From assembly GCA_028286665.1 (NCBI GenBank), contig JAQBRD010000031.1, forward strand, positions 155 to 64,154: a stretch of 64,000 nucleotides of DNA, in the 5' to 3' direction. The notes under the pieces are model-generated. The model was not told where the DNA came from, made no database searches, and was given only the letters and a program-made list of their open reading frames with translations. Numbering within the stretch: the stretch's first letter is position 1; each line of letters begins with the position of its first letter. This document shows, one piece after another, positions 11,715-64,000 of the stretch. The stretch is from Candidatus Tayloriibacteriota bacterium. Its GTDB lineage: Bacteria > Patescibacteriota > Minisyncoccia > Phycocordibacterales > PALSA-1337. The translations under genes and the position numbers were made by a program.

Positions 11715-12737
11715 CTAGAGGAGTTTTCCCAGGCCTTTCGCGTCGAGGTGCGCGTATGCTTTGTCCGTCACGGTGCGGCCGCGGGGCGTCTTCTCGAGCA
11801 AGCCGAGCTGGATAAGATACGGCTCATAAACGTCTTCGATCGTTTCCTGCTCTTCTGAAAGGGCAACCGCGATGGTGTTGAGTCCGACAGGTCCGCCTTT
11901 GAACTTATTGATGATGGTATTGAGGACTTCGCGATCAGCCGCATTGAGGCCGAGATGATCGACGCCGAGCATCGAGAGGGCCTTCTCGACGATCTCTCCG
12001 GAAAGGGATGTGTTATTGATCTGCGCATAGTCGCGGCAGCGCTTGAGGAAATAATTGGCAGTACGGGGAGTGAAACGGCTGCGCTTCGAGATCGCAGTTA
12101 CAGCGTCATCGTGAATCTCGATATTGAGGATCTTGGCGGAACGCTTCACGATCTCGCCGATCTCTTCTTCGGTATAGAATTCGAGCTTGAATACGCCGCC
12201 GGAAAATCTTGAGCGAAGCGGCGACGAAATCATGGCGATGCGCGTCGTCGCAGCGATGAGCGTGAAAGCCGGAAGCTCGAGCTGGATGGTCCGAGCCGAA
12301 GGACCCTTGCCGATGATGATGTCGAGCGTCCCTGATTCCATGGCAGGGTAGAGGACTTCCTCGATTGCCTTGTTGAGACGGTGTATTTCGTCGATGAAAA
12401 GAATGTCGCCATGCGACAGGTTCGTGAGGATCGATGCGAGATCGCCGACTTTGAGGATTGCCGGGCCCGAAGTGACCTTCATCTGCGCGCCGGTCTCCTT
12501 CGCGATGAGATGCGCGAGCGTGGTCTTGCCAAGACCTGGGGGTCCATAGAAAAGAATGTGTTCTGGCGGATGCTTCCGCTGCTCTGCGGCAGTGAGGAGC
12601 ACATGCAAGTTGTTCTTGATGTTCTTCTGACCGATGTACTCAGCCCATTTTCCTGGACGAAGGGTATTGTCGAGGTATGCCGTCTCCTTTTTCGGGTCTG
12701 CCTCAGCTGCTCGGGGGGTAGGATTGGTACTTGACAT
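11715..12737 (-). CDS. ruvB: Holliday junction branch migration helicase RuvB
   Basis: The protein has ILFYGPPGLGKTTLAHLIA (Walker A), LFIDEIHRL (Walker B) and a winged-helix C-terminus. Confidence 0.95.
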   Translation of the reverse strand: MSSTNPTPRAAEADPKKETAYLDNTLRPGKWAEYIGQKNIKNNLHVLLTAAEQRKHPPEHILFYGPPGLGKTTLAHLIAKETGAQMKVTSGPAILKVGDLASILTNLSHGDILFIDEIHRLNKAIEEVLYPAMESGTLDIIIGKGPSARTIQLELPAFTLIAATTRIAMISSPLRSRFSGGVFKLEFYTEEEIGEIVKRSAKILNIEIHDDAVTAISKRSRFTPRTANYFLKRCRDYAQINNTSLSGEIVEKALSMLGVDHLGLNAADREVLNTIINKFKGGPVGLNTIAVALSEEQETIEDVYEPYLIQLGLLEKTPRGRTVTDKAYAHLDAKGLGKLL

Positions 12738-13121
12738 ATTATTTAATATATGCTAGGATACTAGTGTAAGTGACTCAGATGATTCAGAACGGTCGCTATT
12801 CAATTTTTCAGGACGAGCTCATCGAATTCACAAATCTCTAAGCAATATACGTGGTTTGCTCCGCGTATCTGACATAGTTTTGAGGACATTTTGGTTATCA
12901 CCTCGTGTGCATGTACTGGGGTTATCCTTTGGACTATGTTTAACTTTTGGTCGGCTGATTGGAAGTATTGCTTGGAGATTTCTGCATTCGATCTATGTCG
13001 AGGAACTACATACATCGTACTCCTCTCCCATTAAAATTCAATTGACAGCGAAAGTTTTGTGGTTCGTAACTGAATCCGCATCCTCGCTCACCATCATTCC
13101 GCGCTCATTCAAGTGCGGCTT

Positions 13122-13469
13122 TTATTTTTTGGCGGCGCTATTGAGTTGGTTCTGCGCTTTCTGAATTTCCATCGATTCTTTCTGCTCCTCGCGCACATCC
13201 ACGTCGATTTCGCGCTTAAGGTTCGGAATCTCGTATTGCGTACGCGTGATCTCGTTCCTTTCGGTGTTGATTTCAGCCCGGTGCTTCTTTATCTCCATAT
13301 CGAGCTTTATGACTTCCTGCTCATGCTCGCGCATCTTAGCCTGGAATTCTGTGATCTTCGAGCCGTCTTCGACGAGCTTCTTCTTGAGTTCCTCGATGTG
13401 ATCGTGGTGCTTTCGCCGTGCTTCGTTGAGCTGATCGATCATATGCTTCACGTCCATTTGCAGTGCCAT
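13122..13469 (-). CDS. Coiled-coil hypothetical protein downstream of pilB
   Basis: The protein is about 115 aa from the internal Met (MALQMDVKHMIDQLNEARRKHHDHIEELKK...) and is rich in Lys, Glu and Arg heptads. The start is uncertain. Confidence 0.35.
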   Translation of the reverse strand: MALQMDVKHMIDQLNEARRKHHDHIEELKKKLVEDGSKITEFQAKMREHEQEVIKLDMEIKKHRAEINTERNEITRTQYEIPNLKREIDVDVREEQKESMEIQKAQNQLNSAAKK

Positions 13470-13506
13470 GGTATTTTTTAAAGTTAGGATTCCTGATTGA
13501 ATAATT

Positions 13507-15201
13507 CTAATCCTCAAGCCCGACCACTCGCTCGAGCTCGTCGAAGGTCGTCGTTCCCTGGAGGATCTTGATCATGCCGTCCTGCGTCATCGTGATGAGT
13601 CCTTGGGGGACTGCGGCTGCGGCGACCTCGGCTTCGCTCGGGCTGAATTCGATGACCTTCTCGACTTCAGGAGTGATCCTGATTCCTTCGTAGATTCCGA
13701 TGCGGCCTTTGTAGCCGGTCTTGTTGCACTTTGTGCATCCGTCACTCACCCATATTTTCGAATTGTTCGCCGGTATCTGAGATCTGTCGACGATCGAAGC
13801 CATCGAACTGTCGATGAGCCGCTTCATGCGGAGGATCTTCTTGTCCTCGGTCGGCGCATTGATGTCGAGTTCCTTCCTGCAGAATGGGCAGAGCTTTCGG
13901 AGGAGACGCTGCGCGAGGATGATGTTGACTGCGGAGCTGAGGATCTTCGGATTCACGCCGAGATCGCTCAGGCGGGGGAATGCTCCGGCTGCGCTGTTGG
14001 TGTGGAGCGTCGAGAAGACGAGGTGTCCGGTGAGCGCGGAGTTGATGGCGATGGAGGCTGTCTCGCCATCACGGATTTCACCGATCATGATCACGTCCGG
14101 ATCCTGTCGAAGCACTGAGCGGAGGCCTTCGACGAAGGTGTAGCCCTTGTCGTTCACCTGCGTCTGGGTGATGCCGGGGAGGTGGTATTCGATCGGGTCT
14201 TCGATGGTGATGATCTTCACTTCCTGTCCGTAGACTTTCTTCAGGAAGGCATAGAGCGTGGTGGTCTTTCCGGAACCTGTCGGACCTGTCGTGAGGAGCA
14301 TTCCTTTCGGCTTGTTGATCTCCCGCTCGATGACGGCCATGAGCTTCTCGGGGATGCCGAGCGCTTCGAGGGGAACGCCGATCGATTTCGGATTGAGGAT
14401 TCGCATCACGATGGATTCGTTGTATGCGCCAGGAAGGATCGAGGTTCGGATTTCGATATCGGCGTCGTTGATGTGCACGCTGAAGCGTCCGTCCTGCGCG
14501 CTGCTCTTGATATTGAGCTTGAGGCCGGAGAGGAGCTTGATTCGCGACGTGAGCAGGTTGAAAGTGTCCTTGTCGAAATTGAGCACGTTGATGAGCACGC
14601 CGTCGAGCCGGTATCGGAGTCGGATGTATTCTTCTTCAGGCTCGATATGGATGTCTGAAGCGTCGGTCGCGAGCGCTCCTGCGAGGATGGTCTCGAGGAT
14701 GTGCGAAACGCGATAGCTCTTCTTCGTCGAGAGGGTATTCTCCAGGATCGAAATGATCGTCGGAAGGCTCTTTGCCTGTCCGACGATCGCATTGATCTCC
14801 TCGCTCGAGATCTCGAGCGAACCCGCTTTGTTTTCTATGGCGAACGAGAGGTCCTTGTATCCGGTCCAGGCTTTTTCAAGGCTGGCTGTCGAAGTTATGT
14901 AGAGTTCAGGAAGCCAATTCTTCTCCTTCAGGCTTGCGACGACCTGAGCGACCTGCGGGCTTTCCGGTTCGCGGACGGCGACTTTCACGCGCTTGTCGAT
15001 GAGGGCGAATGCCGCAGCCTTCGAGGTTCGGGCTGTCTTTTCTTCGATGAGGCGGAGCGCGTCAGCATTCACTGAACTGATCGTGAGATCGATGTATTCG
15101 AGACCGTATTTGGCAGAGAGGTATTGCACTACCTCCTCTTCTTCCTTGTGGAGGAGGTCGGTTACTCGGCGATTCTGCTTGTCTTCATCAAATTCGATCA
15201 T
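13507..15201 (-). CDS. pilB: Type IV pilus assembly ATPase PilB (GspE family)
   Basis: I take the start at the internal Met (MIEFDEDKQ...). The protein has GPTGSGKTTTLYAF (Walker A), the GspE signature region and a CPFC...CTKCNKTGYKGRIGIYE tetracysteine motif. Confidence 0.9.
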   Translation of the reverse strand: MIEFDEDKQNRRVTDLLHKEEEEVVQYLSAKYGLEYIDLTISSVNADALRLIEEKTARTSKAAAFALIDKRVKVAVREPESPQVAQVVASLKEKNWLPELYITSTASLEKAWTGYKDLSFAIENKAGSLEISSEEINAIVGQAKSLPTIISILENTLSTKKSYRVSHILETILAGALATDASDIHIEPEEEYIRLRYRLDGVLINVLNFDKDTFNLLTSRIKLLSGLKLNIKSSAQDGRFSVHINDADIEIRTSILPGAYNESIVMRILNPKSIGVPLEALGIPEKLMAVIEREINKPKGMLLTTGPTGSGKTTTLYAFLKKVYGQEVKIITIEDPIEYHLPGITQTQVNDKGYTFVEGLRSVLRQDPDVIMIGEIRDGETASIAINSALTGHLVFSTLHTNSAAGAFPRLSDLGVNPKILSSAVNIILAQRLLRKLCPFCRKELDINAPTEDKKILRMKRLIDSSMASIVDRSQIPANNSKIWVSDGCTKCNKTGYKGRIGIYEGIRITPEVEKVIEFSPSEAEVAAAAVPQGLITMTQDGMIKILQGTTTFDELERVVGLED

Positions 15202-15426
15202 AGAGATATGCCAATAGTATACCAAGTATTCAGCCAAATAGGGCATGCGAAAAGGGCATATCTGAGGCCTCGGCAAGCCATTTGGACATGTATTGACATA
15301 TATGTTATAAATGGTATAATATACCACAGAGCAGTATCAGAAAAAACAATACAAACCCTACCGATGTGCCATGAATGAGGCCTTGTTTGGCACCATCTCA
15401 AGCACACAACGCAAGAAAACACGAAA

Positions 15427-16053
15427 ATGAAAACACTGAAAATTGTCAATTCAATCACTTTGGCCATCATCGCGATTGCGATGATGGCCTCGACTTCTAC
15501 AGCAAAGGCTTACGGCCCTTGGTACACACATACGAATGAAACGAGCACTGTTGACGTCAGTACCAATGTCAGCTGCAAGGTCGCCGTCCCGAGCAGCAAT
15601 GTTCAGGCCGTGGCTCCAAGCTCCAATTATAGTTATTCCGGTTCGACGACAACTGCGGAAGCTCAAGCGAGCGTCGGTACTACCGGCGAAGTCGGAGAAT
15701 CCCGTCTCATCAGGGAACCCATGGTCGCGAATCATAGCTACAGCCGAACATGGACCGACCATCGCACTGGCCTCACATACACCACGAATTATGTGGTGGA
15801 TCGCGTCGAACGGGACCAGGTCGTCAATACGTTCAAGCCGAACGGTACGTTCCTCGGGAGTACGGTCATTCGGACCACGGTCGTAACAACGAATAGTTAT
15901 GGAAGCGTTTCACAGAACGCCGACTTCCGCGAGCCGCAGACGTACATTCCGGTGAATGCGCCGCAAGCAAGCTATAGAGAAGGGCATTTTACGAAGAATG
16001 GGTTCTTCCGATCGCTGACTCTGCCGTTCAGCAACCATAAGAGGTCAAAGTGA
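15427..16053 (+). CDS. Secreted hypothetical protein
   Basis: The signal peptide is MKTLKIVNSITLAIIAIAMMASTSTAKA, and the mature region is Ser/Thr-rich. Confidence 0.45.
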   Translation: MKTLKIVNSITLAIIAIAMMASTSTAKAYGPWYTHTNETSTVDVSTNVSCKVAVPSSNVQAVAPSSNYSYSGSTTTAEAQASVGTTGEVGESRLIREPMVANHSYSRTWTDHRTGLTYTTNYVVDRVERDQVVNTFKPNGTFLGSTVIRTTVVTTNSYGSVSQNADFREPQTYIPVNAPQASYREGHFTKNGFFRSLTLPFSNHKRSK

Positions 16054-16087
16054 TTGAGTTGAACTCAGAACCGCTCTCGCGCCTCAT

Positions 16088-16603
16088 GTGCTTGAGCGGT
16101 TTCACTTTTTCATAAGAGGCTGCTATATTGGATTCATGAATACGGCACCGCATCTATCGGCACGATCGACTTCGCTCGAACAGACATCGGAAATCGCTCG
16201 GCAATGGCTCGAGGCGATCGCTGCTTCGCCTGTCTCAGCTTCAGCGATAATCATCGGCCTCGATGGAAACCTCGGTTCGGGTAAGACGACTTTCACGCAG
16301 GCTGTCGCGCGGGAGCTCGGCGTCGCCGAACAGGTGACGAGCCCTACGTACGTGATCCAGAAATCCTATGCGATATTGAATCCGAGATTTTCCGCTCGTT
16401 TCAGCCGACTCATCCATATCGACGCGTATCGTCTCGAAGAGGCAAGCGAGCTCGAGGTTATCGGTTTCAGGAAGCTCGCGGCAGATCCGCGGAATCTCAT
16501 CCTCATCGAATGGCCTGAAAGGGTAGCAGCCCTCCTGCCTGCGGACATGCGCACGGTGCATTTCGCATTCGTCGATGAGACGACTCGAAGCATCGAATAT
16601 TAG
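16088..16603 (+). CDS. tsaE: tRNA threonylcarbamoyladenosine biosynthesis protein TsaE (YjeE-type P-loop)
   Basis: The protein has IGLDGNLGSGKTTFTQAVAREL, VTSPTYVIQKSY and IHIDAYRLE. The true start is probably the internal Met at about 16136. Confidence 0.8.
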   Translation: MLERFHFFIRGCYIGFMNTAPHLSARSTSLEQTSEIARQWLEAIAASPVSASAIIIGLDGNLGSGKTTFTQAVARELGVAEQVTSPTYVIQKSYAILNPRFSARFSRLIHIDAYRLEEASELEVIGFRKLAADPRNLILIEWPERVAALLPADMRTVHFAFVDETTRSIEY

Positions 16604-17733
16604 AAGGGAATCAGTGCGCCGTTCTTATACGTATCGAGCTCTACCGGCGTGGTGCTGACCTGGTGGGTCGGGAGGAACGTGATCGGACCATTTGCGGTCG
16701 AGAATGCATGAGACTCTATATATGAGGAGACATCGGCATTGTTTCCAGTCTTCGCGATTGCTTCGGCGAGGACATAGACGGCATCGTATGATCGATTCGC
16801 GGACTTCGCAGAATCGGCATTGAATCGCGCGTGGTATCGGGCGATGAATGCAGGCGTGCTCGCTTCCCAATTGAGGACGGTTATTCCTTCGAGGAGCGAT
16901 CGGTTGTCTGCGGTGAATCCGTCGTACGAGCCTGCGTAGGTGATCATCTTCGACGTGAAGCCGAGCTCCTTCGAGCGCATGAGGAAGTTCACGGTGTCTT
17001 TGTCGACCATGTCGAGAAAGACGGTGTCGACGTGCTGCTGCTTCAATTTGGCGATAGTGGTTTTGAAGTCATTGGTATCGAAAGCCGTGTACGCTTCGTC
17101 GATGATCACGCCCTTGCCGATCTCTTTCGTTACCTGCGCGATGGTCTTCGCGATCTCTGTGCCGAAGGTTGATTTGAAATGGACGACGGCGATCTTCTGC
17201 ACGTCGTCGCGCTTCAGATAGCTCGTGACGCCGCGGATGACTTTGCTGAAATCAGTGAGCATCGAGAAGCTATTCGCATTGAATTCGAAGCCGCCTTCGA
17301 TCCTGAACTGCGTCGGCGTGATCAGGGTTGTCTTGCTATTGAGGGCAAGCGGAAGCATCGGCTGGGCAACGAAATCCCAGAGGCCGCCGATGACGGCATT
17401 TGCGTTGTCGATGCTCGTGAGCTTCGTGAAAGCCGAAACCGCGGATTTCGGGTTCGTCTGATCGTCTTCATAGATGATCCTCACTTGCCGGCCGTCGATG
17501 CCGCCTGCTGCATTGATCTCTGATGCCGCGAGATCCATGCCGTTCTTGGCGTATTCGCCGAAGCTTGCCGCCGGACCTGTGAGCGAAATGACGGCGCCGA
17601 TGACGATCGGGTTTGCTGACGCATTGCTGCCGGAATCGGCAGGGGATACGCTCGGCTTATTGAGCGCGATGACTGCTCCCGCGATGAGCGCTGCGAGCAC
17701 TATAGCTGAAATGATTGCTGATGATTTTTTCAT
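16600..17733 (-). CDS. Membrane-anchored LivK-type (PBP type I) substrate-binding protein, copy 1
   Basis: There is an N-terminal anchor, followed by IVIGAVISLTGPAASFGEYAKNGMDLAASEINAAGGIDGRQVRIIYEDDQ, which is typical of the branched-chain amino-acid binding family. No permease or ATPase gene is adjacent. Confidence 0.8.
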   Translation of the reverse strand: MKKSSAIISAIVLAALIAGAVIALNKPSVSPADSGSNASANPIVIGAVISLTGPAASFGEYAKNGMDLAASEINAAGGIDGRQVRIIYEDDQTNPKSAVSAFTKLTSIDNANAVIGGLWDFVAQPMLPLALNSKTTLITPTQFRIEGGFEFNANSFSMLTDFSKVIRGVTSYLKRDDVQKIAVVHFKSTFGTEIAKTIAQVTKEIGKGVIIDEAYTAFDTNDFKTTIAKLKQQHVDTVFLDMVDKDTVNFLMRSKELGFTSKMITYAGSYDGFTADNRSLLEGITVLNWEASTPAFIARYHARFNADSAKSANRSYDAVYVLAEAIAKTGNNADVSSYIESHAFSTANGPITFLPTHQVSTTPVELDTYKNGALIPF

Positions 17734-36488: not shown

Positions 36489-39400
36489 ATGGATATGAAA
36501 AAAATCGCTGTATTCCTCGGCATCCTGGCGGTCGCGTTCTCGGGTTTTTTTGCGGTGAAGCATGATGCGCAGGCTAGTTCGATGGGATATATAGAGTCGA
36601 GTTGCATCTATTACGGATATCAATCGAATGGCAATACTTTCTCTGAAACCCGTTTCTGGGATATGCCGATCACTGATGCGATGCCTGCTCCTCAGAATCT
36701 GGGAACTCTCATTGCGACATATGCAGCGTCGAAGCCTGCAGGCGACAGGTCAGAGAGTCGTCAAAATAATTCTACGTCTAAATTGGCTTACCCGGTAGGC
36801 TGCCAAAAATATTCCGGTTTTTTCACCTATAAGGTTATGAGCATGGTCCTCAGCACCGATGACTCGGTTCGGTTTTCAGACGGCAATACGGTGCGAGACT
36901 ATGCGGGACCGGTGAGCGCGGTGGATGAAGTAATGACCAGCCATGCGGACAAGCTTACTTTCAACGTGATACCAAAATTCCGCGGACCCGCGACTACTCT
37001 TGCGGCAAGCGTCTCAGGAAATCAGGTGACTCTTGCTTGGAGCAATCCGTTTCCGGCGAAATCTCTTGCCATGACTAGCTATGTGGCTGCGGTTGAGCGG
37101 GCACGTGCAGGATCGAATTCATTCGTGCAGGTGAGCCCCGCTCTCGATCAAAGCTTCAGCATGCCGTATTCGAATATCGGAAACTATACGAAATTCTTCA
37201 CGCCGCAATTGACCTACACGGATACCTCGGCGCCTGAAGGAGATTTTGATTATCGAATCAGGATAGACATGTCTTTTCAGACAGCCACTGGCGAATTCTA
37301 TGTAAATGGCGGAAGCAGCCAAGATGGTTATTATGCAAAGACATATCATTATTCGACCGTCGCGAGCGCAAAGTTGCCACCGAAAGCTCCGAAGCTCGCT
37401 TCGATCAGTCCAAATAGCTTCAGTGTCGATGCGACAGAAACGCCGCCGGTCACTATCGCTGGAACTGGCTTCAAGCCGACCGGCAATTCAATCAAGTTCG
37501 TTCATGCGACCATCGCAGGCAAGGTATACCGCATCGATGACGTATCGAGCGCTGGAACCTCTCTCGCTTTCGATCTGCCCGCAGGCATGACGCAAGGAGC
37601 ATATAACGTAACGACGAAAGTCACTGATAGCCCTTGGAGCAATGAGCTCACCGTCAGGGTTCTTCCGAAGAGTCCTGCGGCACTTACAGCGAAATTCGTA
37701 TTTACTGATACTAAAAAAGGAATCGATCTCGATTGGAGCGGAGGCGCAGCGAATTCGATTGTTTCTGGGTATGAGGTGGAAAGGGCTTCTGGGTATAGGG
37801 CAGACTCTGCAGAGTATAAGAAGATATCGGAAACTACCGGAAAGACAGCCTTCGATGCAAATTTGAATTTGCTTACTACGAAGGATATTTTTTACCGGAT
37901 CAAGACTAAATTCACTGATGGAACTTCCGTTACCTCTAATGTAGCTTCGGTTCCCGCGTGTCAGAAGATTGCGGGAAATGGTCCGGTCAAAGTCGTGTTC
38001 ATGAGAGATAAGAAAATATCCGAAGATCTCAAAGTAGATGCATTTTACGGTGTAGTCTTGAATACAATAAAACTCGGCTTCAGAAGGACAGATCCCTTCA
38101 AGGCGTATGCTAACAAATTCTCCTTCTATATCGATCTTGAAGAATATGATACTTATGATGATTGGTCGATGCCTGAAGGCACGGCAAAATCTCAATCTGA
38201 GTGCGGAAAGGATGCAAAGATTTATATTTATTACAGCACAAAAGTAGGAAAAACAGCTTACTCATACTTCAATAGCGGAGAGGTGTACATGATGCCTTTT
38301 GATTTATTGCCTACAGCAGGCTTCGATAATCTTATCGATTATGAGAAAAAAATACGTCTGCTCGATAGCAGCGCATCTTCTTCACTTATTCTTGCGCAGG
38401 CTACGCTTCACGAAGTCGGGCATGCTTTCGGAAGATTGCGAGACGAATATATCAGAAGTACTGAGCCTGAACCGTCTTCATTGAGCGTTTTCGATTCCGT
38501 AAATTGCAGCACTAAACCATCGTCTGATTTCCGAAGCTCTATCAATAATCAGATATACGGTTCATTGACAAGCGTCGGCTGCAGCTATCTCAAAGCATAC
38601 ACCGGTCATGCAGGCGATACCTCCAATACATTCTACAAGCCGAGTAAGGCAAGCTTGATGGATACGATACATGCAACCAAGAATCCAGACGGTACGTACA
38701 TAACGTATTCGCGAATATCATCTCCTCGATTCAATGTTATCTCTTGCGGGTATCTCATTTCGGCAATTCTCGGAGAGCCTACGGATAAGGCACATGCGCA
38801 AACGCATTGGCAAGAATGCGCGACGGAACTCGATACTGAGACGGATACTCCGCCGCTTGCCGGCAAGCCGGGGACCTTGAAATCATCAAGCTCCATCGTA
38901 TATCCAGGCAATGCGATAAAATCATCAGCAAACTCAGTTTCAAAAATGAATTCCGTGCCAACCTCGTCAGATCGAAACAGCTTGATCATCAGCGGTTCTG
39001 GCTTCACTCCGGAGGGGAACAATATTCGCTTTGCCAATACTGCAACAAAGAAGGTTTTCGAGATAAATGAGGTTCCAAGCATCGACGGAAAAACTCTGCA
39101 GCTAGATATTCCAAACGATACCGATCCAGGAACATACAACGTAAGGGTGGGGGCATTCAACAGTCCTTGGAGTGACGCGATATCGCTTCAAGTGCTCGAT
39201 TTCCCGAAGATTGCTTCATTTAGTCCTGCATCAATCACGCTTAGCGAGCTCTCGAAGCCGATCCTCATCAAAGGATCTAATTTTATCGTCGGACATACGG
39301 TGACGGTTTCATTCGCGCCGAAGAGCGGAGGATCGGCTATCATAAGCACCGCGAAAGTTGCAACGAGTACGAAAATTTCCGTTATACCGCCGGCCTCGCT

Positions 39401-42104
39401 TGCTGTTGGAACATATCAGGTCTTTGTTTCGGATTCGACCGATGGCGCGAAAGTCGAAACCAATAAGCTCGACCTCGGCGTGTATGAAGCTCGAGTGGCG
39501 GTTCCTACGATTTCTGCAGCTTCGCCAGCGAAAGCTGGTCCGAGCGCGAGCGTCGCCCTGAACGGTACTCATTTCACCGCAGATTCGATCGTGAGGATCT
39601 GGAACGATTCTCAGGAATATTCCGTGACGCCGACGATCGCATCGAGCACGAGACTGACATTCATCGTTCCTGCGAATGCGGTTCTCGGAACATACTCGGT
39701 CAAGGTCCTTGCGGGATCAGTCGGCGAATCAACCTCGCTTCCATTCCAGATTCTTTCCATTCCGAATATCACAAGCATCACTCCGAGATCTCTCGCCAAC
39801 CCTAATGTGACAGGGAAGCCGATCGTTCTTGCAGGCGTCCGCTTCATCGTCGGCCATATGGTAGATGTCGTATTCGAGCCAAAAAGCGGAGCCGCGTCAA
39901 CTCCCGTTTCAGTCAGAGTCGCAAGTTCGACGCGTATCACGCTCAGTGCTCCGGCCTTATCCGTTGGCATCTATGACGTATCTGTCGTCGATGGTTCTAT
40001 CGAAACAAACAAAGTGGCCTTCACAGTATCGAACGGCATTCCGGCGATCACTGCAATGAACCCTCCTGCGGAAGGTCCTGGCGGAACGATAACCGTCTCA
40101 GGCGCAAGATTCGTCGATGGGATCGTCCTGCGGATACTCCCGGGAACGACGGTCATCCCGGCCGCTTCGACCACGGTTGCTGCTGACGGCAGAACACTCA
40201 CATTCATCGTGCCATCCGGACTCGCGGCAGGCAGTTATGCATTGAGAGCTGCAGTTCCTGGCGTGGGAGCAAGCAATGATTTCGTATTCACGATTCTTTC
40301 AGGTCCCGTTCTGACCTCGGCTCAAGCGTCGGGCGGCGATCAGTATTCGATCAGCGGTTCCAATTTCGTAGTTGGCAAGACCGCAACGGTCAATTTCGCT
40401 CCTCGAGCCGGAGGCAGCAGCGTGCTGGCTTCTGCAGTGATCGCATCATCGACGCAGGTAAGCGTGAACGCTGTTCTTCCGGAAGGGAATTACGATGTCT
40501 CGATGACTGTCGATTCCGTGACCACGAACAGAGTCATATTCTCGACTAACCCTCCGATACTGACATCCTTTACAACGGATGCGCCGGTACCAGATCAGCC
40601 ATATTGCGACTCGCCGAGTCCGGTGACCTTCACTGTTACGGGCAGGAATTTCCTCGCGTCATCCGTTCTCAAAATAATCGGAGCCGGCGGAAAGGTGTAT
40701 CCATTGAATAACAATCAGGTTTCTGCTGATAAGGCATCTATCTCCGCTCAGTTCAATTACCGATGCGCGACAGCTTCTGACAATGGAGCGGGAACTATTT
40801 CGCAGGGGGCTTATTCGCTCGTCGTCGATGGCCTGAGCCCGATCGTGAGCAATAGCCTTCTCTTCAACATACCTTACCCGATGCGGATCCTTCCGCTCGG
40901 CGTGACGGACGTCATCCAATCGGGTCAGATCGTCCTCGTCGGCTCCATGCAGATATTCCATGTGCAACGAGGCAGCGACTTCACTCAGACTTGGGACATT
41001 TTGGGTTCCGGCGGGTCGCTGTCCTATACTGCGATACTCAGCCGCTTCGATCCGTTCATCGATGTCGCCAACTATACGAATAACACGATCGCATACCAAT
41101 ATAGGAACAGCATCAACGCTTCCGGAGGGGTTGTCGGGTCCGCTTTCAATGTGACTATTCCTACAGCTTCCATTCCTGTAGGAACGTATACATTGAAAGC
41201 AGGATTGAATTATCCAGGAAATCCACCTCGATCGTTGCCGCTCATACCGACTGCGAGCGTGGGAGATGCTAACCTTCCATGGTACGACGCCTCGTATTCG
41301 CCGGGATATCGATATACAGTCGGATTCTTGATGGTTGAGGATGCTGCCGCAACGGCGGCTTCAGTCAAGAAAACGCAGAGCGCAGCATCGACGCCTCTTA
41401 CGCTGAGCGCCCTTATCAAAAATGCCGCATCGACATCGACATCAGCTGCGAAGATCGTCGCTCCCGTTTCAGCTCCTGTCTCTGTTCCTGTTCCGAAACC
41501 TGCTACATCAACTCCGGCAATTTCAATTGCAGCTACCACAAGCTCAACAATTTCGATCCCGTCAGCTCCGACCCCAGTTCCAGTAGCGCCGATTCCAGTT
41601 CCTGCGCCGACACCCGTACCAGCTCCGGTTCCTGCGGTCATGCCGATCACTATCCTCCCATGGTCTGCACAAGCAACCATCCAGGCAGGGAAGTCTCTCC
41701 CATACACGCTTAATTGGAGCGGCGGTCCTACGGAGAAGACTTGGAAATCATTCATCCATGTCGTGAAGGGCGATGGCACGACTGTCGCGGCAGATGCATA
41801 CTATCCTTCTACTCCGACGACCCAGTGGTCTGGAAGTCAGAATTTCAGTAGCTCAGTGGCGATACCTCCGACGCTTGCTCCAGGTACGTATCGGGTCATG
41901 GCCGGTCTCTGGATCCCTGTGGGAACTACGCCGTCAGCTGATTTGAAACTCGTCCCAGGATCCGGCGTGACGCTCGATCCGGCATATAGCGCACATTATC
42001 GATACCAAGTCGGGACGATCACGGTGACGTCGCCGTCATCAGCGCTCGGAGCGATGATCAGCGCGCTCGGCGATGACTTCATCTCGCGTTTCTTCAGCAG
42101 GTAG
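36489..42104 (+). CDS. Giant modular surface protein (1871 aa): signal peptide, Fn3-like modules, about 9 IPT/TIG-like Ig repeats, zincin metallopeptidase-like domain (HEVGH...DEY, M64-like), Pro/Thr/Ala-rich linker, C-terminal domain
   Basis: The signal peptide is MDMKKIAVFLGILAVAFSGFFAV. Repeats of about 85-90 aa of the form P.I.S..P........I.G..F..G..V.F.P..G.......V.S.T.I....P..L..G.Y.V.V recur about nine times. LAQATLHEVGHAFGRLRDEYI matches the HExxH(x7)DEY pattern of family M64. A PVPAPTPVPAPVP linker follows. Confidence 0.75.
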   Translation: MDMKKIAVFLGILAVAFSGFFAVKHDAQASSMGYIESSCIYYGYQSNGNTFSETRFWDMPITDAMPAPQNLGTLIATYAASKPAGDRSESRQNNSTSKLAYPVGCQKYSGFFTYKVMSMVLSTDDSVRFSDGNTVRDYAGPVSAVDEVMTSHADKLTFNVIPKFRGPATTLAASVSGNQVTLAWSNPFPAKSLAMTSYVAAVERARAGSNSFVQVSPALDQSFSMPYSNIGNYTKFFTPQLTYTDTSAPEGDFDYRIRIDMSFQTATGEFYVNGGSSQDGYYAKTYHYSTVASAKLPPKAPKLASISPNSFSVDATETPPVTIAGTGFKPTGNSIKFVHATIAGKVYRIDDVSSAGTSLAFDLPAGMTQGAYNVTTKVTDSPWSNELTVRVLPKSPAALTAKFVFTDTKKGIDLDWSGGAANSIVSGYEVERASGYRADSAEYKKISETTGKTAFDANLNLLTTKDIFYRIKTKFTDGTSVTSNVASVPACQKIAGNGPVKVVFMRDKKISEDLKVDAFYGVVLNTIKLGFRRTDPFKAYANKFSFYIDLEEYDTYDDWSMPEGTAKSQSECGKDAKIYIYYSTKVGKTAYSYFNSGEVYMMPFDLLPTAGFDNLIDYEKKIRLLDSSASSSLILAQATLHEVGHAFGRLRDEYIRSTEPEPSSLSVFDSVNCSTKPSSDFRSSINNQIYGSLTSVGCSYLKAYTGHAGDTSNTFYKPSKASLMDTIHATKNPDGTYITYSRISSPRFNVISCGYLISAILGEPTDKAHAQTHWQECATELDTETDTPPLAGKPGTLKSSSSIVYPGNAIKSSANSVSKMNSVPTSSDRNSLIISGSGFTPEGNNIRFANTATKKVFEINEVPSIDGKTLQLDIPNDTDPGTYNVRVGAFNSPWSDAISLQVLDFPKIASFSPASITLSELSKPILIKGSNFIVGHTVTVSFAPKSGGSAIISTAKVATSTKISVIPPASLAVGTYQVFVSDSTDGAKVETNKLDLGVYEARVAVPTISAASPAKAGPSASVALNGTHFTADSIVRIWNDSQEYSVTPTIASSTRLTFIVPANAVLGTYSVKVLAGSVGESTSLPFQILSIPNITSITPRSLANPNVTGKPIVLAGVRFIVGHMVDVVFEPKSGAASTPVSVRVASSTRITLSAPALSVGIYDVSVVDGSIETNKVAFTVSNGIPAITAMNPPAEGPGGTITVSGARFVDGIVLRILPGTTVIPAASTTVAADGRTLTFIVPSGLAAGSYALRAAVPGVGASNDFVFTILSGPVLTSAQASGGDQYSISGSNFVVGKTATVNFAPRAGGSSVLASAVIASSTQVSVNAVLPEGNYDVSMTVDSVTTNRVIFSTNPPILTSFTTDAPVPDQPYCDSPSPVTFTVTGRNFLASSVLKIIGAGGKVYPLNNNQVSADKASISAQFNYRCATASDNGAGTISQGAYSLVVDGLSPIVSNSLLFNIPYPMRILPLGVTDVIQSGQIVLVGSMQIFHVQRGSDFTQTWDILGSGGSLSYTAILSRFDPFIDVANYTNNTIAYQYRNSINASGGVVGSAFNVTIPTASIPVGTYTLKAGLNYPGNPPRSLPLIPTASVGDANLPWYDASYSPGYRYTVGFLMVEDAAATAASVKKTQSAASTPLTLSALIKNAASTSTSAAKIVAPVSAPVSVPVPKPATSTPAISIAATTSSTISIPSAPTPVPVAPIPVPAPTPVPAPVPAVMPITILPWSAQATIQAGKSLPYTLNWSGGPTEKTWKSFIHVVKGDGTTVAADAYYPSTPTTQWSGSQNFSSSVAIPPTLAPGTYRVMAGLWIPVGTTPSADLKLVPGSGVTLDPAYSAHYRYQVGTITVTSPSSALGAMISALGDDFISRFFSR

Positions 42105-60046: not shown

Positions 60047-61456
60047 ATGTGGGGTATACTGTACCTCATGAACCCACAAAACAATCCGAACGAGATCAAT
60101 CCCAATGATCTGTTCCCGCAGCGTCCCGCATATCAGCAGACTCCGCCTTCTTCTCCTGCCGGCGGAATTGGGCAGCAGCCGACTCCTGCGATGACTACGC
60201 ACAAAAGCCACCTCCTGATCAAGGTCATTATCGTCATCATACTTCTCCTTATCGCGGGAGGCGTAGCTTCGGCATTCTATCTGAATATATTCCAGTCGCC
60301 TGAAACAACGGTGAAGAACACAGCATACTCGGCCGACAAGCTCCTCTCGGCGCATACTGAAGGGGTCATCGACGTCAGCTTCACGCAGAGCGGCAAAGCG
60401 AACTCGTTCAAGGTCACCATGTCGACCGATGCTGACAAGTCAGATGCGAAGAATCCGAATATATCGAGCAAGATCGCATTCGCGGGCATGGGCCTGACCG
60501 CTGATGCCGATGTCCGATATATCGACAATACACTGTATCTCAGGGTGAATCAGTTTCCGCTGAGCGGCATGATTCCCGGAACCACCAATATCCAGGGCGT
60601 CTGGTATTCAGTTACGAAGCAGGAGATCGAGGATTATTCGAAGCAGTATGGAAGCAAGACTCCTGCCGCTTTGCAGGATCCGAAGAACATCCCGCACGTG
60701 AGCGATCTGTATGATATCTTCAAAAGCAGCCATTTCATCGGCGACATAACATCGCAGGGAATTTCGAAGGGCAAGGATGGATCCTATGTAAGGACATACT
60801 CGATCCCCATCCAGAAAGAGCATCTCTCTGAAGCGTTGATCGCATTGGTCAGCAAATACGATCCGACCGGCAAATCGATTCCGAATGTCGAAGAAGCGAA
60901 GAAGGAATTCGATTCGATCCTGAATGATTTCACGTTCGATACGGCCACCGTCGAAGTCGGACTTTTCGATCAGCAGGTGAGAAGCGTCGCGTTCGGCATT
61001 GGATTCAACCCGACAGGGAAGGCCACAATTCCTTCATTCGGAGGCGGACATGTCGGCGTCCGAAGCGAATACTCGAAGATAAACCAGAAGCTCTCCTTCG
61101 AGAAGCCTGCAGACGCGCAGTCGCTCACGAAGCTCATCGAGGCTTCGATGGGGCAGTCGCAGCAGAAGGCGCAAGATGCGATGATCAAGTCGTATCTCAT
61201 GAGTCTCAGACCATCCAGCGCGCTTTATTTCGATAAGAATCATGGCACATATGTCGGATTCTGCGGATCGAATGATGTAAAAAATATGAATGATACGCTT
61301 GCAGCGAAGCAAGGACACAGCCCACTCAATTGCCTATCCGACGCGAGCAAATTCATTGCCTTCGTGCCGCTCTCAGATCAAACATATTTCTGCGTTGATT
61401 CTGCCGGAGCAGCCGTTACGATCCCCGGAATTCCTGTCAGCAAGAGCTGCAAGTAG
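60047..61456 (+). CDS. Hypothetical membrane-anchored extracellular protein (Pro/Gln-rich N-terminus, single TM)
   Basis: A low-complexity N-terminus (NPQNNPNEINPNDLFPQRPAYQQTPPSSPAGG) is followed by a TM helix (LLIKVIIVIILLLIAGGVASAF) and a domain of about 380 aa ending in paired Cys. The start may be at 60068. Confidence 0.45.
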   Translation: MWGILYLMNPQNNPNEINPNDLFPQRPAYQQTPPSSPAGGIGQQPTPAMTTHKSHLLIKVIIVIILLLIAGGVASAFYLNIFQSPETTVKNTAYSADKLLSAHTEGVIDVSFTQSGKANSFKVTMSTDADKSDAKNPNISSKIAFAGMGLTADADVRYIDNTLYLRVNQFPLSGMIPGTTNIQGVWYSVTKQEIEDYSKQYGSKTPAALQDPKNIPHVSDLYDIFKSSHFIGDITSQGISKGKDGSYVRTYSIPIQKEHLSEALIALVSKYDPTGKSIPNVEEAKKEFDSILNDFTFDTATVEVGLFDQQVRSVAFGIGFNPTGKATIPSFGGGHVGVRSEYSKINQKLSFEKPADAQSLTKLIEASMGQSQQKAQDAMIKSYLMSLRPSSALYFDKNHGTYVGFCGSNDVKNMNDTLAAKQGHSPLNCLSDASKFIAFVPLSDQTYFCVDSAGAAVTIPGIPVSKSCK

Positions 61457-61536: not shown

Positions 61537-61609
61537 GGTGGCTATGGTGTAACGGTTAACACTGGAGCTTGTGGAGCTCTCAATTCGGGTTCGATTCCCG
61601 ATAGCCACC
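61537..61609 (+). tRNA. tRNA-His (anticodon GTG) with genomically encoded G-1
   Basis: g-gtggctatggtgtaacggttaacactggagcttgtggagctctcaattcgggttcgattcccgatagccacc. The anticodon loop is TTGTGGA, the discriminator is C, and the extra 5' G pairs opposite the discriminator. Confidence 0.8.
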
Positions 61610-61644
61610 CACGACTTATTTTTGGCATTTTCTGCCACGCCGAA

Positions 61645-61668: not shown

Positions 61669-61795
61669 CGATTATAGCCCTTCCGGTGTTTACTTCGGTA
61701 GGTGCCGTTTCTTGCCGGAAGCGGTAAACAAGTAAACAAAACCGCTGCCAGGACGACAACGGATTTCAGCCCGCAAAATCAAAAGCCTTGATAAC

Positions 61796-63997
61796 TTACG
61801 ATTCTTTTCGTTTCTGAACAGTTTCAATAAAACCAACAATTGCATTGAGATCTTTCTCGATTTCGTCTGGAAGAGGAAGATCCACTGGAGCTTCGTCCGA
61901 CTGTGAATGCTCGTAACGGGAATACGTCGTCATCATCTCGTCGACAAACTTGCAATCCTCGACAGTGATTTTTGCGAGGTGTTCAATTTTGCCTTTGGTC
62001 TGAACTTCGGCGCTGTGGCGGCGGACAACTCCAGCCAGAAGATCAGTCTCAACAACCTGTTCCAGTAAAATACGAATGTCTCGGCACAGCGCCTTTGCCT
62101 CTTGTTCATACTGCACATCGCCTGCTTCCAACGCCGTTCTTGCCGCACCCAATCGTTCGTTCAAAAAGCGTCTTCCTGTTTGCTTCGTTTTTGTGAGTGT
62201 GATGGGGAGGTCCGCGATATCGCCCTTCCTGCTTTTACTAAGGCAAACGATTGTTTTCTCGATCTTTTCTTTGTCCGTATATTTTTCTAAAAGTCCGATC
62301 AATGAGAGTCGGTGCGTAAAAACAATCACTTGGCGGTTTTTGCTGAGCTCGACAAGACGTTTAGCTGTAGCTTCTTCGTAAACTTGGTCCAGTGAAGAAA
62401 TTGGATCATCAAATACAAACGGCGTTTTCGCTCCTCGACCTTCGGTATCAGCGAGAAACGCAGCTAGAGAAATTATCCGACATTCGCCTTCGCTCAAGAC
62501 GTCGGAGGTTTTTGCGTTCTTGTTGCGACAGTCTTTCAGAAACAACTGGTGATAAACGTGTCCAACGTCGGTCCTTGTCTTTTTCAGATGAACAGGAATC
62601 CGATGAGCCTTAAGCGCAAGCAATTCGGTGGTGAAGCGCTGGGTATACGCTTTCGTTATCAACTCGTCGGCAAGAGTAGATTTTTTTCGGGAAAGGGCTG
62701 CCGTATTGGTTAGAGCACTCGCTGCTTCCAATTTCTTAACTTTAGAAAGGCGAAGTATCTCGGCATCAATAGCCGTCCTTTGTTCGTGCATCCATTTCCT
62801 AGCCGCCAAGTTTTTTCGGGTTTGCTCAAGCGCCGGCCTGTTTTCACTCTTCGCGTCTTTTTCATAACCCCGAGCTTCCTTCGAAAGACTTCGGGCAGCC
62901 TGTGCTATCGGCATCAGGTATGATCTTTTTGGAAGGGAAGATACCTCACTTATCTTGAATGCTGTAAGGCATGAAGATTTTCTGTTTATTATTGCTGATA
63001 CGAATTCTACGATCGAGGCTCGGTCCGCTTTCTCTAGAATCGCCACCGCGTCCATCGTTAACGCCAGTGCGTCGGTCGTCGGAATATTCGGAAACTCAGC
63101 TTCAAGGCTTTGGGTTAGTTGTTCGGCTTTGCGTGCCAGCTTCTGTAATTCTCCTTTGATGAATGTTTCAAATGACTGATGCCGATCGCAACCCTCCGGG
63201 TCGAGGTGTTGCTGACAGAGGACACATCGCGTATCGTCGGCGATATTCGGAAAATCCGCTCCAGGGTAAGCGTGTTCGGTTGAATATGCACGAGCGGCTT
63301 CCCATAAAAGTTGCCAAGATTTCGATCCGACTCCGGCCAACGGCGCTTTTTCGAAGACTTTGTTCGCGTCTTCGTTTGCAGCTTTTCGTTTGGCAATAGC
63401 ATCATTCTTAGCTTCCAGGTATTCCGTACATTTTTCTTCTGAAAAACCGTCGCTGAGCTGCTTCAGCGACTGCAACAGCTTTATCGTCGTTTCAATCTGC
63501 CTATTCACTTTGCTGGCTTTTGCGGCAGGGTCTGCTTCTGAAAGTCTTTTGTTTATGTCGGTGAGTTCTTTATTGTCTGCGGTTGTCCACTTTGCAGCAC
63601 TATCTACACCAACGGTCGTCGTAGCCGCCGTGATGCTTTTATACCATGCAGCCGCAGTTGTTGTTGAAAACTCATGGGGGAAGACGGGTAATTTTGAAAC
63701 GTTTACCCGGATTTGGGTCTGAATCAAACCGCCAACGCTTTCGCAAACGCCAGTTAGACGAGTAAAGAGCCTCAACAGCCACGGCTCGAACGCCACCTCA
63801 TTTTCGCTGTTTACATACACATATCCGCAAGCCGTATCAAAAATGTCGGTACCAAGGAGTTCGGACAACGCTTTACCGGACCATTGTGAAGATTTACCGA
63901 TGGCGTTTTCCGTGAATGTAAATGTCGCGGTCTGTGCTTGTGGACCATCCTTAAATATATCTGTTAAGAGTGCTCCCGGATGTCTCGCGCCGCACAC
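61796..63997 (-). CDS. SMC/RecF/SbcC-like ABC ATPase with CxxC motif and C-terminal extension (N-terminus beyond window); candidate RloC/AAA_13-like defence ATPase
   Basis: The frame is open at the window edge, so the Walker A motif must lie upstream. DDTRCVLCQQHLDPEGCDRH is zinc-hook-like. SEGECRIISLAAFLA is signature-like, PFVFDDPISSLD contains Walker B and the D-loop, and VIVFTHRL is the H-loop. About 170 aa follow the H-loop. Confidence 0.45.
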   Translation of the reverse strand: MCGARHPGALLTDIFKDGPQAQTATFTFTENAIGKSSQWSGKALSELLGTDIFDTACGYVYVNSENEVAFEPWLLRLFTRLTGVCESVGGLIQTQIRVNVSKLPVFPHEFSTTTAAAWYKSITAATTTVGVDSAAKWTTADNKELTDINKRLSEADPAAKASKVNRQIETTIKLLQSLKQLSDGFSEEKCTEYLEAKNDAIAKRKAANEDANKVFEKAPLAGVGSKSWQLLWEAARAYSTEHAYPGADFPNIADDTRCVLCQQHLDPEGCDRHQSFETFIKGELQKLARKAEQLTQSLEAEFPNIPTTDALALTMDAVAILEKADRASIVEFVSAIINRKSSCLTAFKISEVSSLPKRSYLMPIAQAARSLSKEARGYEKDAKSENRPALEQTRKNLAARKWMHEQRTAIDAEILRLSKVKKLEAASALTNTAALSRKKSTLADELITKAYTQRFTTELLALKAHRIPVHLKKTRTDVGHVYHQLFLKDCRNKNAKTSDVLSEGECRIISLAAFLADTEGRGAKTPFVFDDPISSLDQVYEEATAKRLVELSKNRQVIVFTHRLSLIGLLEKYTDKEKIEKTIVCLSKSRKGDIADLPITLTKTKQTGRRFLNERLGAARTALEAGDVQYEQEAKALCRDIRILLEQVVETDLLAGVVRRHSAEVQTKGKIEHLAKITVEDCKFVDEMMTTYSRYEHSQSDEAPVDLPLPDEIEKDLNAIVGFIETVQKRKES

Positions 63998-64000
63998 ATG

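Follow-up and report, generated by a model that had tools for sequence, protein, structure and literature searches.

What is encoded by the large ATPase gene that runs off the upper end of this stretch? The window analysed here, 64,000 nucleotides of contig JAQBRD010000031.1 from a Candidatus Tayloriibacteriota bacterium, ends inside a minus-strand open reading frame (ORF), which an earlier note had described as an ATP-binding cassette (ABC) ATPase of the RloC/AAA_13 type with a CxxC-containing helical insert and a C-terminal domain. RloC, of Geobacillus kaustophilus and Acinetobacter baylyi, is a wobble-nucleotide-excising anticodon nuclease (ACNase) (Davidov & Kaufmann 2008; Klaiman 2012). 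Pfam, the PADLOC group PDC-S06 and homology to the hook and ATPase lobes of RloC agree with that description, and the call was essentially right. We assign the gene with high confidence to the RloC-like/PDC-S06 defence ATPases; it adds a member to a candidate family that had been catalogued before and that overlaps with RloC as published. In the reading we prefer, to which we give a probability of about 55%, it would, by analogy with that class, encode a single-polypeptide, stand-alone anti-phage abortive-infection protein, in which an ATPase gates a HEPN-like ribonuclease (RNase).

The ORF extends from the window edge at 64000 to a TAA stop at 61796-61798, as checked by translation, and represents codons 119-852 plus the stop codon of an 852-amino-acid (aa) protein. 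A database search found it to be identical (100%) to residues 119-852 of NCBI entry MDB5259735.1 (P0001 from here on), which is named 'MAG: restriction endonuclease [Candidatus Taylorbacteria bacterium]' and lies on a 64,590-nt contig; we take Candidatus Taylorbacteria to be a group of the candidate phyla radiation (CPR). The deposited name is not supported by any domain found in this analysis, and homologues are called 'AAA family ATPase' (NCBI) or 'EcfA2' (JGI). Codons 1-118, for an N-terminal helical domain and the Walker A motif, are located off the window, in the ~590 nt by which the NCBI contig extends past it, ~236 nt of which precede the start codon. The earlier note had placed the Walker A motif beyond the open edge; in the complete protein, which supplies residues 1-118, it is present there as GRNGAGKSG (aa 103-111), about 8-16 codons past the edge.

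The visible part of the protein matches the PDC-S06 model PDLC04893 with an E-value of 2.1e-240 over profile positions 120-860 of 862, making P0001 a direct member of that group; because of this value (2e-240 when rounded), neither the ORF nor its family match can be due to chance. Three more PDC-S06 models also match at full length, and in PADLOC the models for PrrC, LmuB, AriA, PbeC and mad3 give short matches to ATPase motifs only. The Pfam family AAA_13 (PF13166, gathering cutoff 36 bits) is reached by full-length P0001 with 45.0 bits (E 8e-12), the window-truncated protein scoring 35.9 bits, just below the cutoff. The match to Pfam SMC_N is weak, NCBIfam returns generic ABC-transporter motifs and no RecN, RecF or SbcC match, and PHROGs contributes only an unannotated family and SbcC/ABC matches. 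PDC-S06 itself is a bioinformatic candidate, a heterogeneous group of 13 models that includes canonical RloC orthologues; in the searched literature it turns up solely in genome surveys, as a label given by PADLOC, and no experimental validation of it was found there.

Conservation was read from an alignment of 90 full-length homologues of 22-62% identity, and the full-length protein was modelled with AlphaFold2 (AF2) using a 90-sequence alignment (predicted local distance difference test score, pLDDT, 88). Both halves of an ABC ATPase head are present, and the Walker A, signature, Walker B/D-loop and H-loop motifs are all found and invariant, with conserved residues G109 and K110 in Walker A, S621 and E624 in the signature, D649, D650 and P651 in Walker B, D656 in the D-loop and T680 and H681 in the H-loop. 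Translation confirms those motifs that had been reported to follow the insert, namely signature, Walker B, D-loop and H-loop. When the full-length model is compared with the PDB using Foldseek, the heads of Rad50, SMC, RecN, JetC, LmuB and the retron Ec83 ATPase are retrieved; sequence searches of the PDB with the full protein and with a tail profile gave generic ABC motifs or nothing. The N-terminus contains three helices at aa 2-48, part of a clade-specific domain of ~95 aa off the window.

The insert (~aa 231-585) is built of many helices of 10-30 residues, with the CxxC motif located in a loop of aa 363-385. Residues C377, L379, C380 and R391 are conserved in this hook region; the two cysteines are the sole invariant Cys pair, and no further conserved Cys or His is present nearby. 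An extended CVLC...C.RH motif, proposed before as resembling a Rad50/SbcC zinc hook, holds for C377, C380 and R391, which are invariant, and fails for C388 and H392, which are not conserved. Judged from its sequence, CxxC is a zinc-hook-type motif, and because each chain offers only one invariant Cys pair, a zinc hook between subunits is likelier than a zinc finger with four ligands.

The protein continues for 171 aa past the H-loop histidine, close to the ~170 aa of unassigned tail counted before, although about 35 of these residues complete the ATPase C-lobe. The remainder is predicted by AF2 to be a separate 137-aa four-helix domain and, when modelled alone, forms a bundle of four long helices with a pLDDT of 92. 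On helix 2, R761, E765 and E769 line up as a stripe (i/i+4/i+8), and H816 is located in the loop after helix 3. The set R761-x3-E765-x3-E769...H816 is invariant in all 90 sequences, down to 22% identity, and M808, T809, Y811 and S812 ahead of the histidine are near-invariant. The order R-x3-E...H is the same as that of the catalytic triads established by mutation in PrrC (R320/E324/H356) and in the G. kaustophilus RloC (R692/E696/H737) (PMC2610378; PMC3025547), and the nuclease domains found in PrrC and RloC have been assigned to HEPN as atypical members (PMC3710099). In a Foldseek comparison of the tail with the PDB, the top match is the HEPN protein 2hsb (probability 0.90, E 0.29, template-modelling (TM) score ~0.47), and about half of the top 30 matches are HEPN domains or toxins, among them 7ae6/8/9, 7bxo, 8yuf, 5yep and 1wol. 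One tail of the family matches Pfam HEPN_Apea at E 0.04. For the tail modelled and compared in this way, HEPN type is a reasonable but unproven assignment, because the Rx4-6H hallmark is absent and the fold matches are non-significant. That the domain is an RNase or ACNase is putative, and we put it at even odds.

The published definition of an RloC orthologue describes a protein of 658-897 aa that has the motifs of an ABC ATPase, a coiled-coil insert containing CXXC and an ACNase triad of Arg, Glu and His (Davidov & Kaufmann 2008, PMC2610378), and a zinc hook together with a DNA-dependent ATPase makes up an internal switch in RloC (PMC3458546). P0001, at 852 aa, falls within the published size range as a single polypeptide, and shares with RloC an ABC head split by a helical insert, an invariant CxxC in a common CxxCQQ context, a small C-terminal domain with an invariant R-x3-E...H in the same order, a mostly stand-alone gene that is at times linked to type I restriction-modification (R-M) genes, and a place in the PDC-S06 group. 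A G. kaustophilus RloC fragment obtained by optical character recognition gave no match as a search query. Among the orthologues of the 2008 Table S1 is a plasmid protein of Shewanella sp. ANA-3, adjoined by an IS200/IS605 transposase (PMC2610378), and this protein was recovered (746 aa, L099:35258-37495, minus strand, flanked by an IS200/IS605 transposase). PADLOC calls it PDC-S06 (PDLC04890, E 3e-266), so PDC-S06 includes at least one RloC orthologue. For Pseudomonas aeruginosa PA14, Table S1 contains two orthologues, of 868 and 717 aa (PMC2610378), and PADLOC makes two PDC-S06 calls. PDC-S06 thus appears to correspond, at least partly, to RloC as broadly defined in 2008. Several Table S1 entries of ~850-880 aa are flagged 'poor ACNase triad?' (PMC2610378); by their size, these may belong to the same ~850-aa clade as P0001.

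On this plasmid (L099:38252-45386 and L093:23291-30536), the ANA-3 RloC gene adjoins a type I R-M operon (M, S, R) encoded by the other strand. The plasmid further carries a second type I R-M system, CBASS, Qat, AbiEii, Abi and RES-Xre.

Direct comparison of P0001 with the Shewanella RloC by BLASTP aligns two regions only, signature/Walker B (E 5e-5) and the CxxCQQ hook (E 3e-4). A profile of the ~850-aa clade (A2) was also set against one of 30 canonical RloCs (A4), many of which are named 'wobble nucleotide-excising tRNase' by JGI. Compared at full length, the two profiles align in the ATPase C-lobe with 95% probability. Compared by part with hhalign, C-lobe matches C-lobe (E 7e-12, probability 97.5%), hook matches hook (E 1.8e-5, probability 78%) and N-lobe matches N-lobe (E 6e-6, over 19 aligned columns at aa 99-117 around Walker A, off the window). 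The RloC pattern recognised before is therefore homologous in ATPase and hook, but RloC proper is unproven for the nuclease domain, where the tail comparison gives E 0.37. At low stringency the tails align colinearly without statistical support, with H816 on RloC H694 and E769 on E655 and the register of the arginine ambiguous.

The differences from RloC concern both ends of the protein. The ~850-aa clade has the extra three-helix domain at the N-terminus, which places Walker A at aa 103-111 in P0001 as against aa 31-38 in the Shewanella RloC, and its tail lacks the RloC invariants W688, N690, G692, S693 and D698/D699. The PDC-S06 sub-models matched are also disjoint (04893, 04891, 04888 and 04892 for P0001; 04890, 04886 and 04897 for RloC). 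A marginal alignment was seen between P0001 aa 6-40 (~64235-64339 by extrapolation, off the window) and aa 633-672 of the Shewanella RloC, its catalytic-helix region (...WLQDAARRL... against ...IQNTMRRIIEN...; hhalign E 7e-4, probability 27%); the best of 42 reversed controls for this alignment reached E 3e-3.

The surroundings of related genes were sampled in 80 species-level genome loci and nine metagenome look-ups, and neighbouring families were clustered for 87 related loci (L001-L087). The tail profile finds 2843 cluster representatives at 50% identity; most of the best 150 are ~850 aa long and carry the tail C-terminally, and those that are shorter are probably fragments. Type I R-M genes are the sole recurrent neighbour families and are always on the same strand. 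They adjoin the gene in 9 firm and 3 weaker cases of the 80 loci (~11-15%), and no other conserved partner gene is present in the 87 clustered loci. With X for the ATPase gene, one order is hsdR-hsdM-hsdS-X, with hsdS and X overlapping by 4 nt in L003, and the prrC-like layouts hsdM-hsdS-X-hsdR (L010, L030) and hsdM-X-hsdS-hsdR (L031) also occur. In BREX operons, X is located at the 3' end, after brxL (L015/16, L090). Other neighbours are type IIG R-M, AIPR, TOTE primase-helicase, GHKL/Sacsin-type ATPase and TrwC relaxase genes; one homologue adjoins a ThsB-TIR gene and an integrase, and one from Xanthomonas is found in a mobile-element region. Plasmid records with a match number 289, with 111 from Klebsiella, 45 from Pseudomonas and 20 from Staphylococcus. 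The closest relatives (57-62% identity; P0002, P0003, P0006 and P0008) are solitary among housekeeping genes, which argues for autonomy. As a module, the gene is autonomous and moves horizontally, and it is often, though not of necessity, found inside operons of methylation-based defence. That homologues occur on plasmids, in defence islands and in operons of the type I R-M and BREX systems bears out the earlier suggestion of a probable defence gene.

Small ORFs upstream of X in L001, L030, L031 and the Xanthomonas locus are mutually unrelated, and a small conserved partner or antitoxin was rejected as a candidate. In L010, a PDC-S05 protein (L010:9489-10577) is encoded between X and hsdR, inside the type I R-M operon, and in L090 a HEC-08/DUF3644 HEPN protein (L090:7039-8004) is located between brxL and X, with a 4-nt overlap. 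Five loci have a pair consisting of an SbcD-like metallophosphoesterase and a 1080-1250-aa SbcC-like ATPase next to the gene: in L014-L016 and L020 (~12530-17500) the pair is immediately downstream of it and shares its strand, whereas in L086 the pair is on the opposite strand. In the 2008 RloC table, SbcCD or a metallophosphoesterase flanks two orthologues (PMC2610378), and the SbcCD-like pair may be a recurrent association of this family.

In the mechanism we propose by analogy with RloC and PrrC, the CxxC motifs of two protomers would be paired by a common zinc ion, and the ATPase-plus-hook module would hold the C-terminal domain latent. On sensing an infection cue, for which DNA ends or damage and the lost activity of an R-M or BREX partner are candidates, the module would activate the tail. 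This would be an HEPN-like RNase that needs no metal, its most plausible target being the anticodon loops of tRNA, and the cleavage of RNA would stop translation and thereby abort the infection. The tRNA-His gene that neighbours the ATPase gene would not be part of the system.

Several observations weigh against this picture. The HEPN fold matches of the tail are individually non-significant (E 0.29 or higher, TM score ~0.47) and are interspersed with generic four-helix bundles, a common fold. As had been noticed before, the tail has no clean Rx4-6H: the 90 aligned homologues show no conserved arginine 5-7 residues before H816. Single tails searched against Pfam give no AAA_13 and no credible HEPN match, and against PADLOC they find PDC-S06 models only and no PrrC. 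The hhalign value of 0.37 for the tails of the clade and of canonical RloCs is surpassed by a reversed control at 0.07. JGI labels canonical RloCs 'wobble nucleotide-excising tRNase' and the P0001 clade 'EcfA2', so the clade stands outside the JGI annotation of RloC. In the AF2 model, the insert is made up of many short helices instead of forming two clean coiled-coil arms. Upstream of the gene the contig breaks off after only ~236 nt, and no defence or nuclease assay of the ~850-aa PDC-S06 clade is published in the searched literature. A tentative and less probable view is that the ~850-aa clade could form a separate lineage, sister to RloC, which has kept the ATPase/zinc-hook switch, gained an N-terminal helical sensor and perhaps acquired a different effector. 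The effector may then be a non-canonical R/E/E/H four-helix nuclease lacking Rx4-6H, and substrate and trigger could differ from those of RloC and PrrC.

If the family assignment holds but the tail is not a nuclease at all, the tail could be a regulatory or partner-binding module that docks Hsd proteins, BREX proteins or DNA, the whole protein being a sensor or guard that acts in trans. The recurrent embedding in R-M and BREX operons would suit such a role, as would the lack of Rx4-6H and of detectable homology to the RloC/PrrC nucleases, and four-helix bundles are common interaction modules, with non-HEPN bundles among the fold matches of the tail. We consider it unlikely: a dedicated partner is improbable because most homologues, including the closest, are solitary and have no conserved neighbour, and R, E, E and H, strictly invariant even among sequences of only 22% identity, are more readily explained as an active site than as an interface. 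An active site of another kind, as in a DNase, a nucleotide-degrading enzyme or some other hydrolase, is a slightly more distant prospect. The R/E/E/H set is compatible with several chemistries, neither a Pfam family nor a PDB sequence match assigns the domain, and defence proteins with an ABC ATPase are combined with effectors of many types (bioRxiv 10.1101/2024.01.29.577857). Yet HEPN RNases lead the fold matches, the order R-x3-E...H is that of the PrrC/RloC triad and the remainder of the protein is homologous to RloC; against a DNase in particular, the 137-aa domain is all-helical and has no metal-binding acidic cluster of the kind typical of these enzymes.

A housekeeping ATPase of DNA repair or chromosome maintenance (SbcC/Rad50, RecN, RecF or SMC) is effectively refuted. 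The full-length model does retrieve Rad50, SMC and RecN heads, SMC_N is matched weakly and an SbcD/SbcC-like pair adjoins the gene in 5 of 80 loci, but these pairs bring their own SbcC, and the window contains no SbcD/Mre11 partner, in line with the earlier remark that none was visible downstream. The family occurs patchily, and plasmids and defence islands feature prominently among its locations. Compared with SbcC/Rad50, P0001 has a short, multi-helix insert and the extra 137-aa C-terminal domain, and it matches PDC-S06 (E 2e-240) and none of RecN, RecF or SbcC in NCBIfam. Identity with SbcC, RecN or RecF was rejected, and the tail is no known DNA-repair domain. The ATPase-gated, RloC-like RNase stays the reading we prefer.

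Other defence ATPases show more limited likeness. PrrC, the E. coli tRNA-Lys ACNase associated with the type Ic R-M system EcoprrI, likewise combines an ABC-type NTPase with a nuclease-type domain at the C-terminus that shows the R-x3-E...H pattern, and the hsdM-hsdS-X-hsdR order of some homologues is exactly prrC-like. However, PrrC has ~400 aa and no coiled-coil/CxxC insert, as against the 852 aa and 355-aa insert of P0001, and prrC is always linked to R-M genes, unlike the ~11-15% of P0001-homologue loci. The PADLOC PrrC model matches just 53 ATPase residues (E 1e-3), and the essential R349 and N352 of PrrC (Rx6H motif) are unmatched in P0001 (PMC3025547). ABC-ATPase-HEPN fusions of the APECO1_4465 and ERFG_01251 groups are found near R-M genes, in some cases together with RhuM-like or other toxin genes (Anantharaman et al. 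2013, PMC3710099). They share with P0001 an ABC ATPase and a small helical C-terminal RNase-type domain, but by their description have recognisable HEPN motifs where the P0001 tail has a weakly HEPN-like fold without Rx4-6H. PtuA of Septu and of retrons Ec78 and Ec83 is of the same Pfam AAA_13 class, and the retron Ec83 ATPase chain appears at Foldseek rank 35. Here the nuclease is a separate HNH partner, PtuB, whereas the effector-like domain of P0001 is fused; no PtuB-like partner is present among the 87 clustered loci, and the PtuA model is absent from the PADLOC matches.

If the preferred reading is true, a Candidatus Taylorbacteria genome carries a tRNA- or RNA-targeting abortive-infection gene. 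An anonymous PADLOC candidate is also tied, at least in part, to a biochemically studied family. What goes beyond the catalogue is this link between PDC-S06 and RloC, the clade-specific N-terminal domain and a tail without detectable similarity to the RloC nuclease. These clade features are incremental variation on a known theme, and for the window alone the result is an ordinary one; the ~850-aa clade, for its part, is large and clinically widespread on Klebsiella and Pseudomonas plasmids. Should the clade be a sister lineage with its own effector, it would represent a common but unrecognised type of defence effector, also present on Staphylococcus plasmids and in CPR bacteria. The features of the locus are collected in Table 1.

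Table 1. Features of the ATPase gene and its 3' flank, in window positions
Feature	Position	Strand	Basis
Visible part of gene, RloC-like/PDC-S06 ATPase (high-confidence assignment)	61796-64000	-	PDLC04893 match, E 2e-240
Rest of ABC ATPase N-lobe, aa 119-230	63665-64000	-	AF2 full-length model
All-helical insert between the ATPase lobes, ~355 aa, aa 231-585	62600-63664	-	AF2 secondary structure
CVLC, C377/C380 (aa 377-380), context CxxCQQxL	63215-63226	-	Invariant in 90 homologues
ABC ATPase C-lobe, aa 586-715	62210-62599	-	hhalign to canonical RloC C-lobe
Signature LSEGE	62483-62497	-	Translation
Walker B/D-loop PFVFDDPISSLD	62387-62422	-	Translation
H-loop VIVFTHR	62309-62329	-	Translation
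C-terminal 137-aa four-helix domain, aa 716-852, putative effector	61799-62209	-	AF2 tail model
R761, E765, E769 on one helix	62048-62074	-	Invariant columns
H816, loop after third long helix	61907-61909	-	Invariant column
Terminator-like hairpin followed by TTTTGTTT run, 34 nt past stop	61742-61762	-	Consensus scan, 2 sites against 1.0 expected

Because of the terminator-like hairpin and T-run after its stop codon, the gene appears, from sequence, to end its transcription unit. The tRNA-His gene (61538-61610, plus strand) lies on the opposite strand, 185 nt past the ATPase stop, and is followed further on by a 469-aa ORF, tRNA-Leu, rplS and a pseudouridine synthase gene. Its adjacency had been taken as suggestive of an anticodon-nuclease-type or other defence ATPase, a clue that we rejected: a tRNA gene lies within 300 bp in only 1 of 60 homologue loci (within ~10 kb in 10 of 60), and since the adjacency is not conserved among homologues it carries no weight. 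The neighbour is best read as a coincidence, at most as an insertion hotspot. Nor do the tRNA genes form the cluster that had been described. The eight in the window (Lys, Arg, Ser, Arg, Leu, Val, Leu, His) are dispersed singly or in pairs over 33 kb (28589-61610) and interspersed with housekeeping genes such as rplS, the pseudouridine synthase gene and pilM. A type I R-M partner acting in trans from elsewhere in the window was rejected, two query sets finding no Hsd homologues there; the gene probably entered this genome horizontally, as a solitary insertion.

The 469-aa ORF (60047-61456, plus strand), which separates tRNA-Leu(gag) from tRNA-His, finds no match in Pfam or PADLOC and is unrelated to the recurrent neighbours of the homologues. 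Inside the coding sequence of a homologue, ARAGORN predicts a 96-nt 'tRNA-Ser(cga)' on the minus strand (L049:10228-10323), which is probably a false positive. Elsewhere in the window, an ORF of 1871 aa is present at 36489-42104 on the plus strand.

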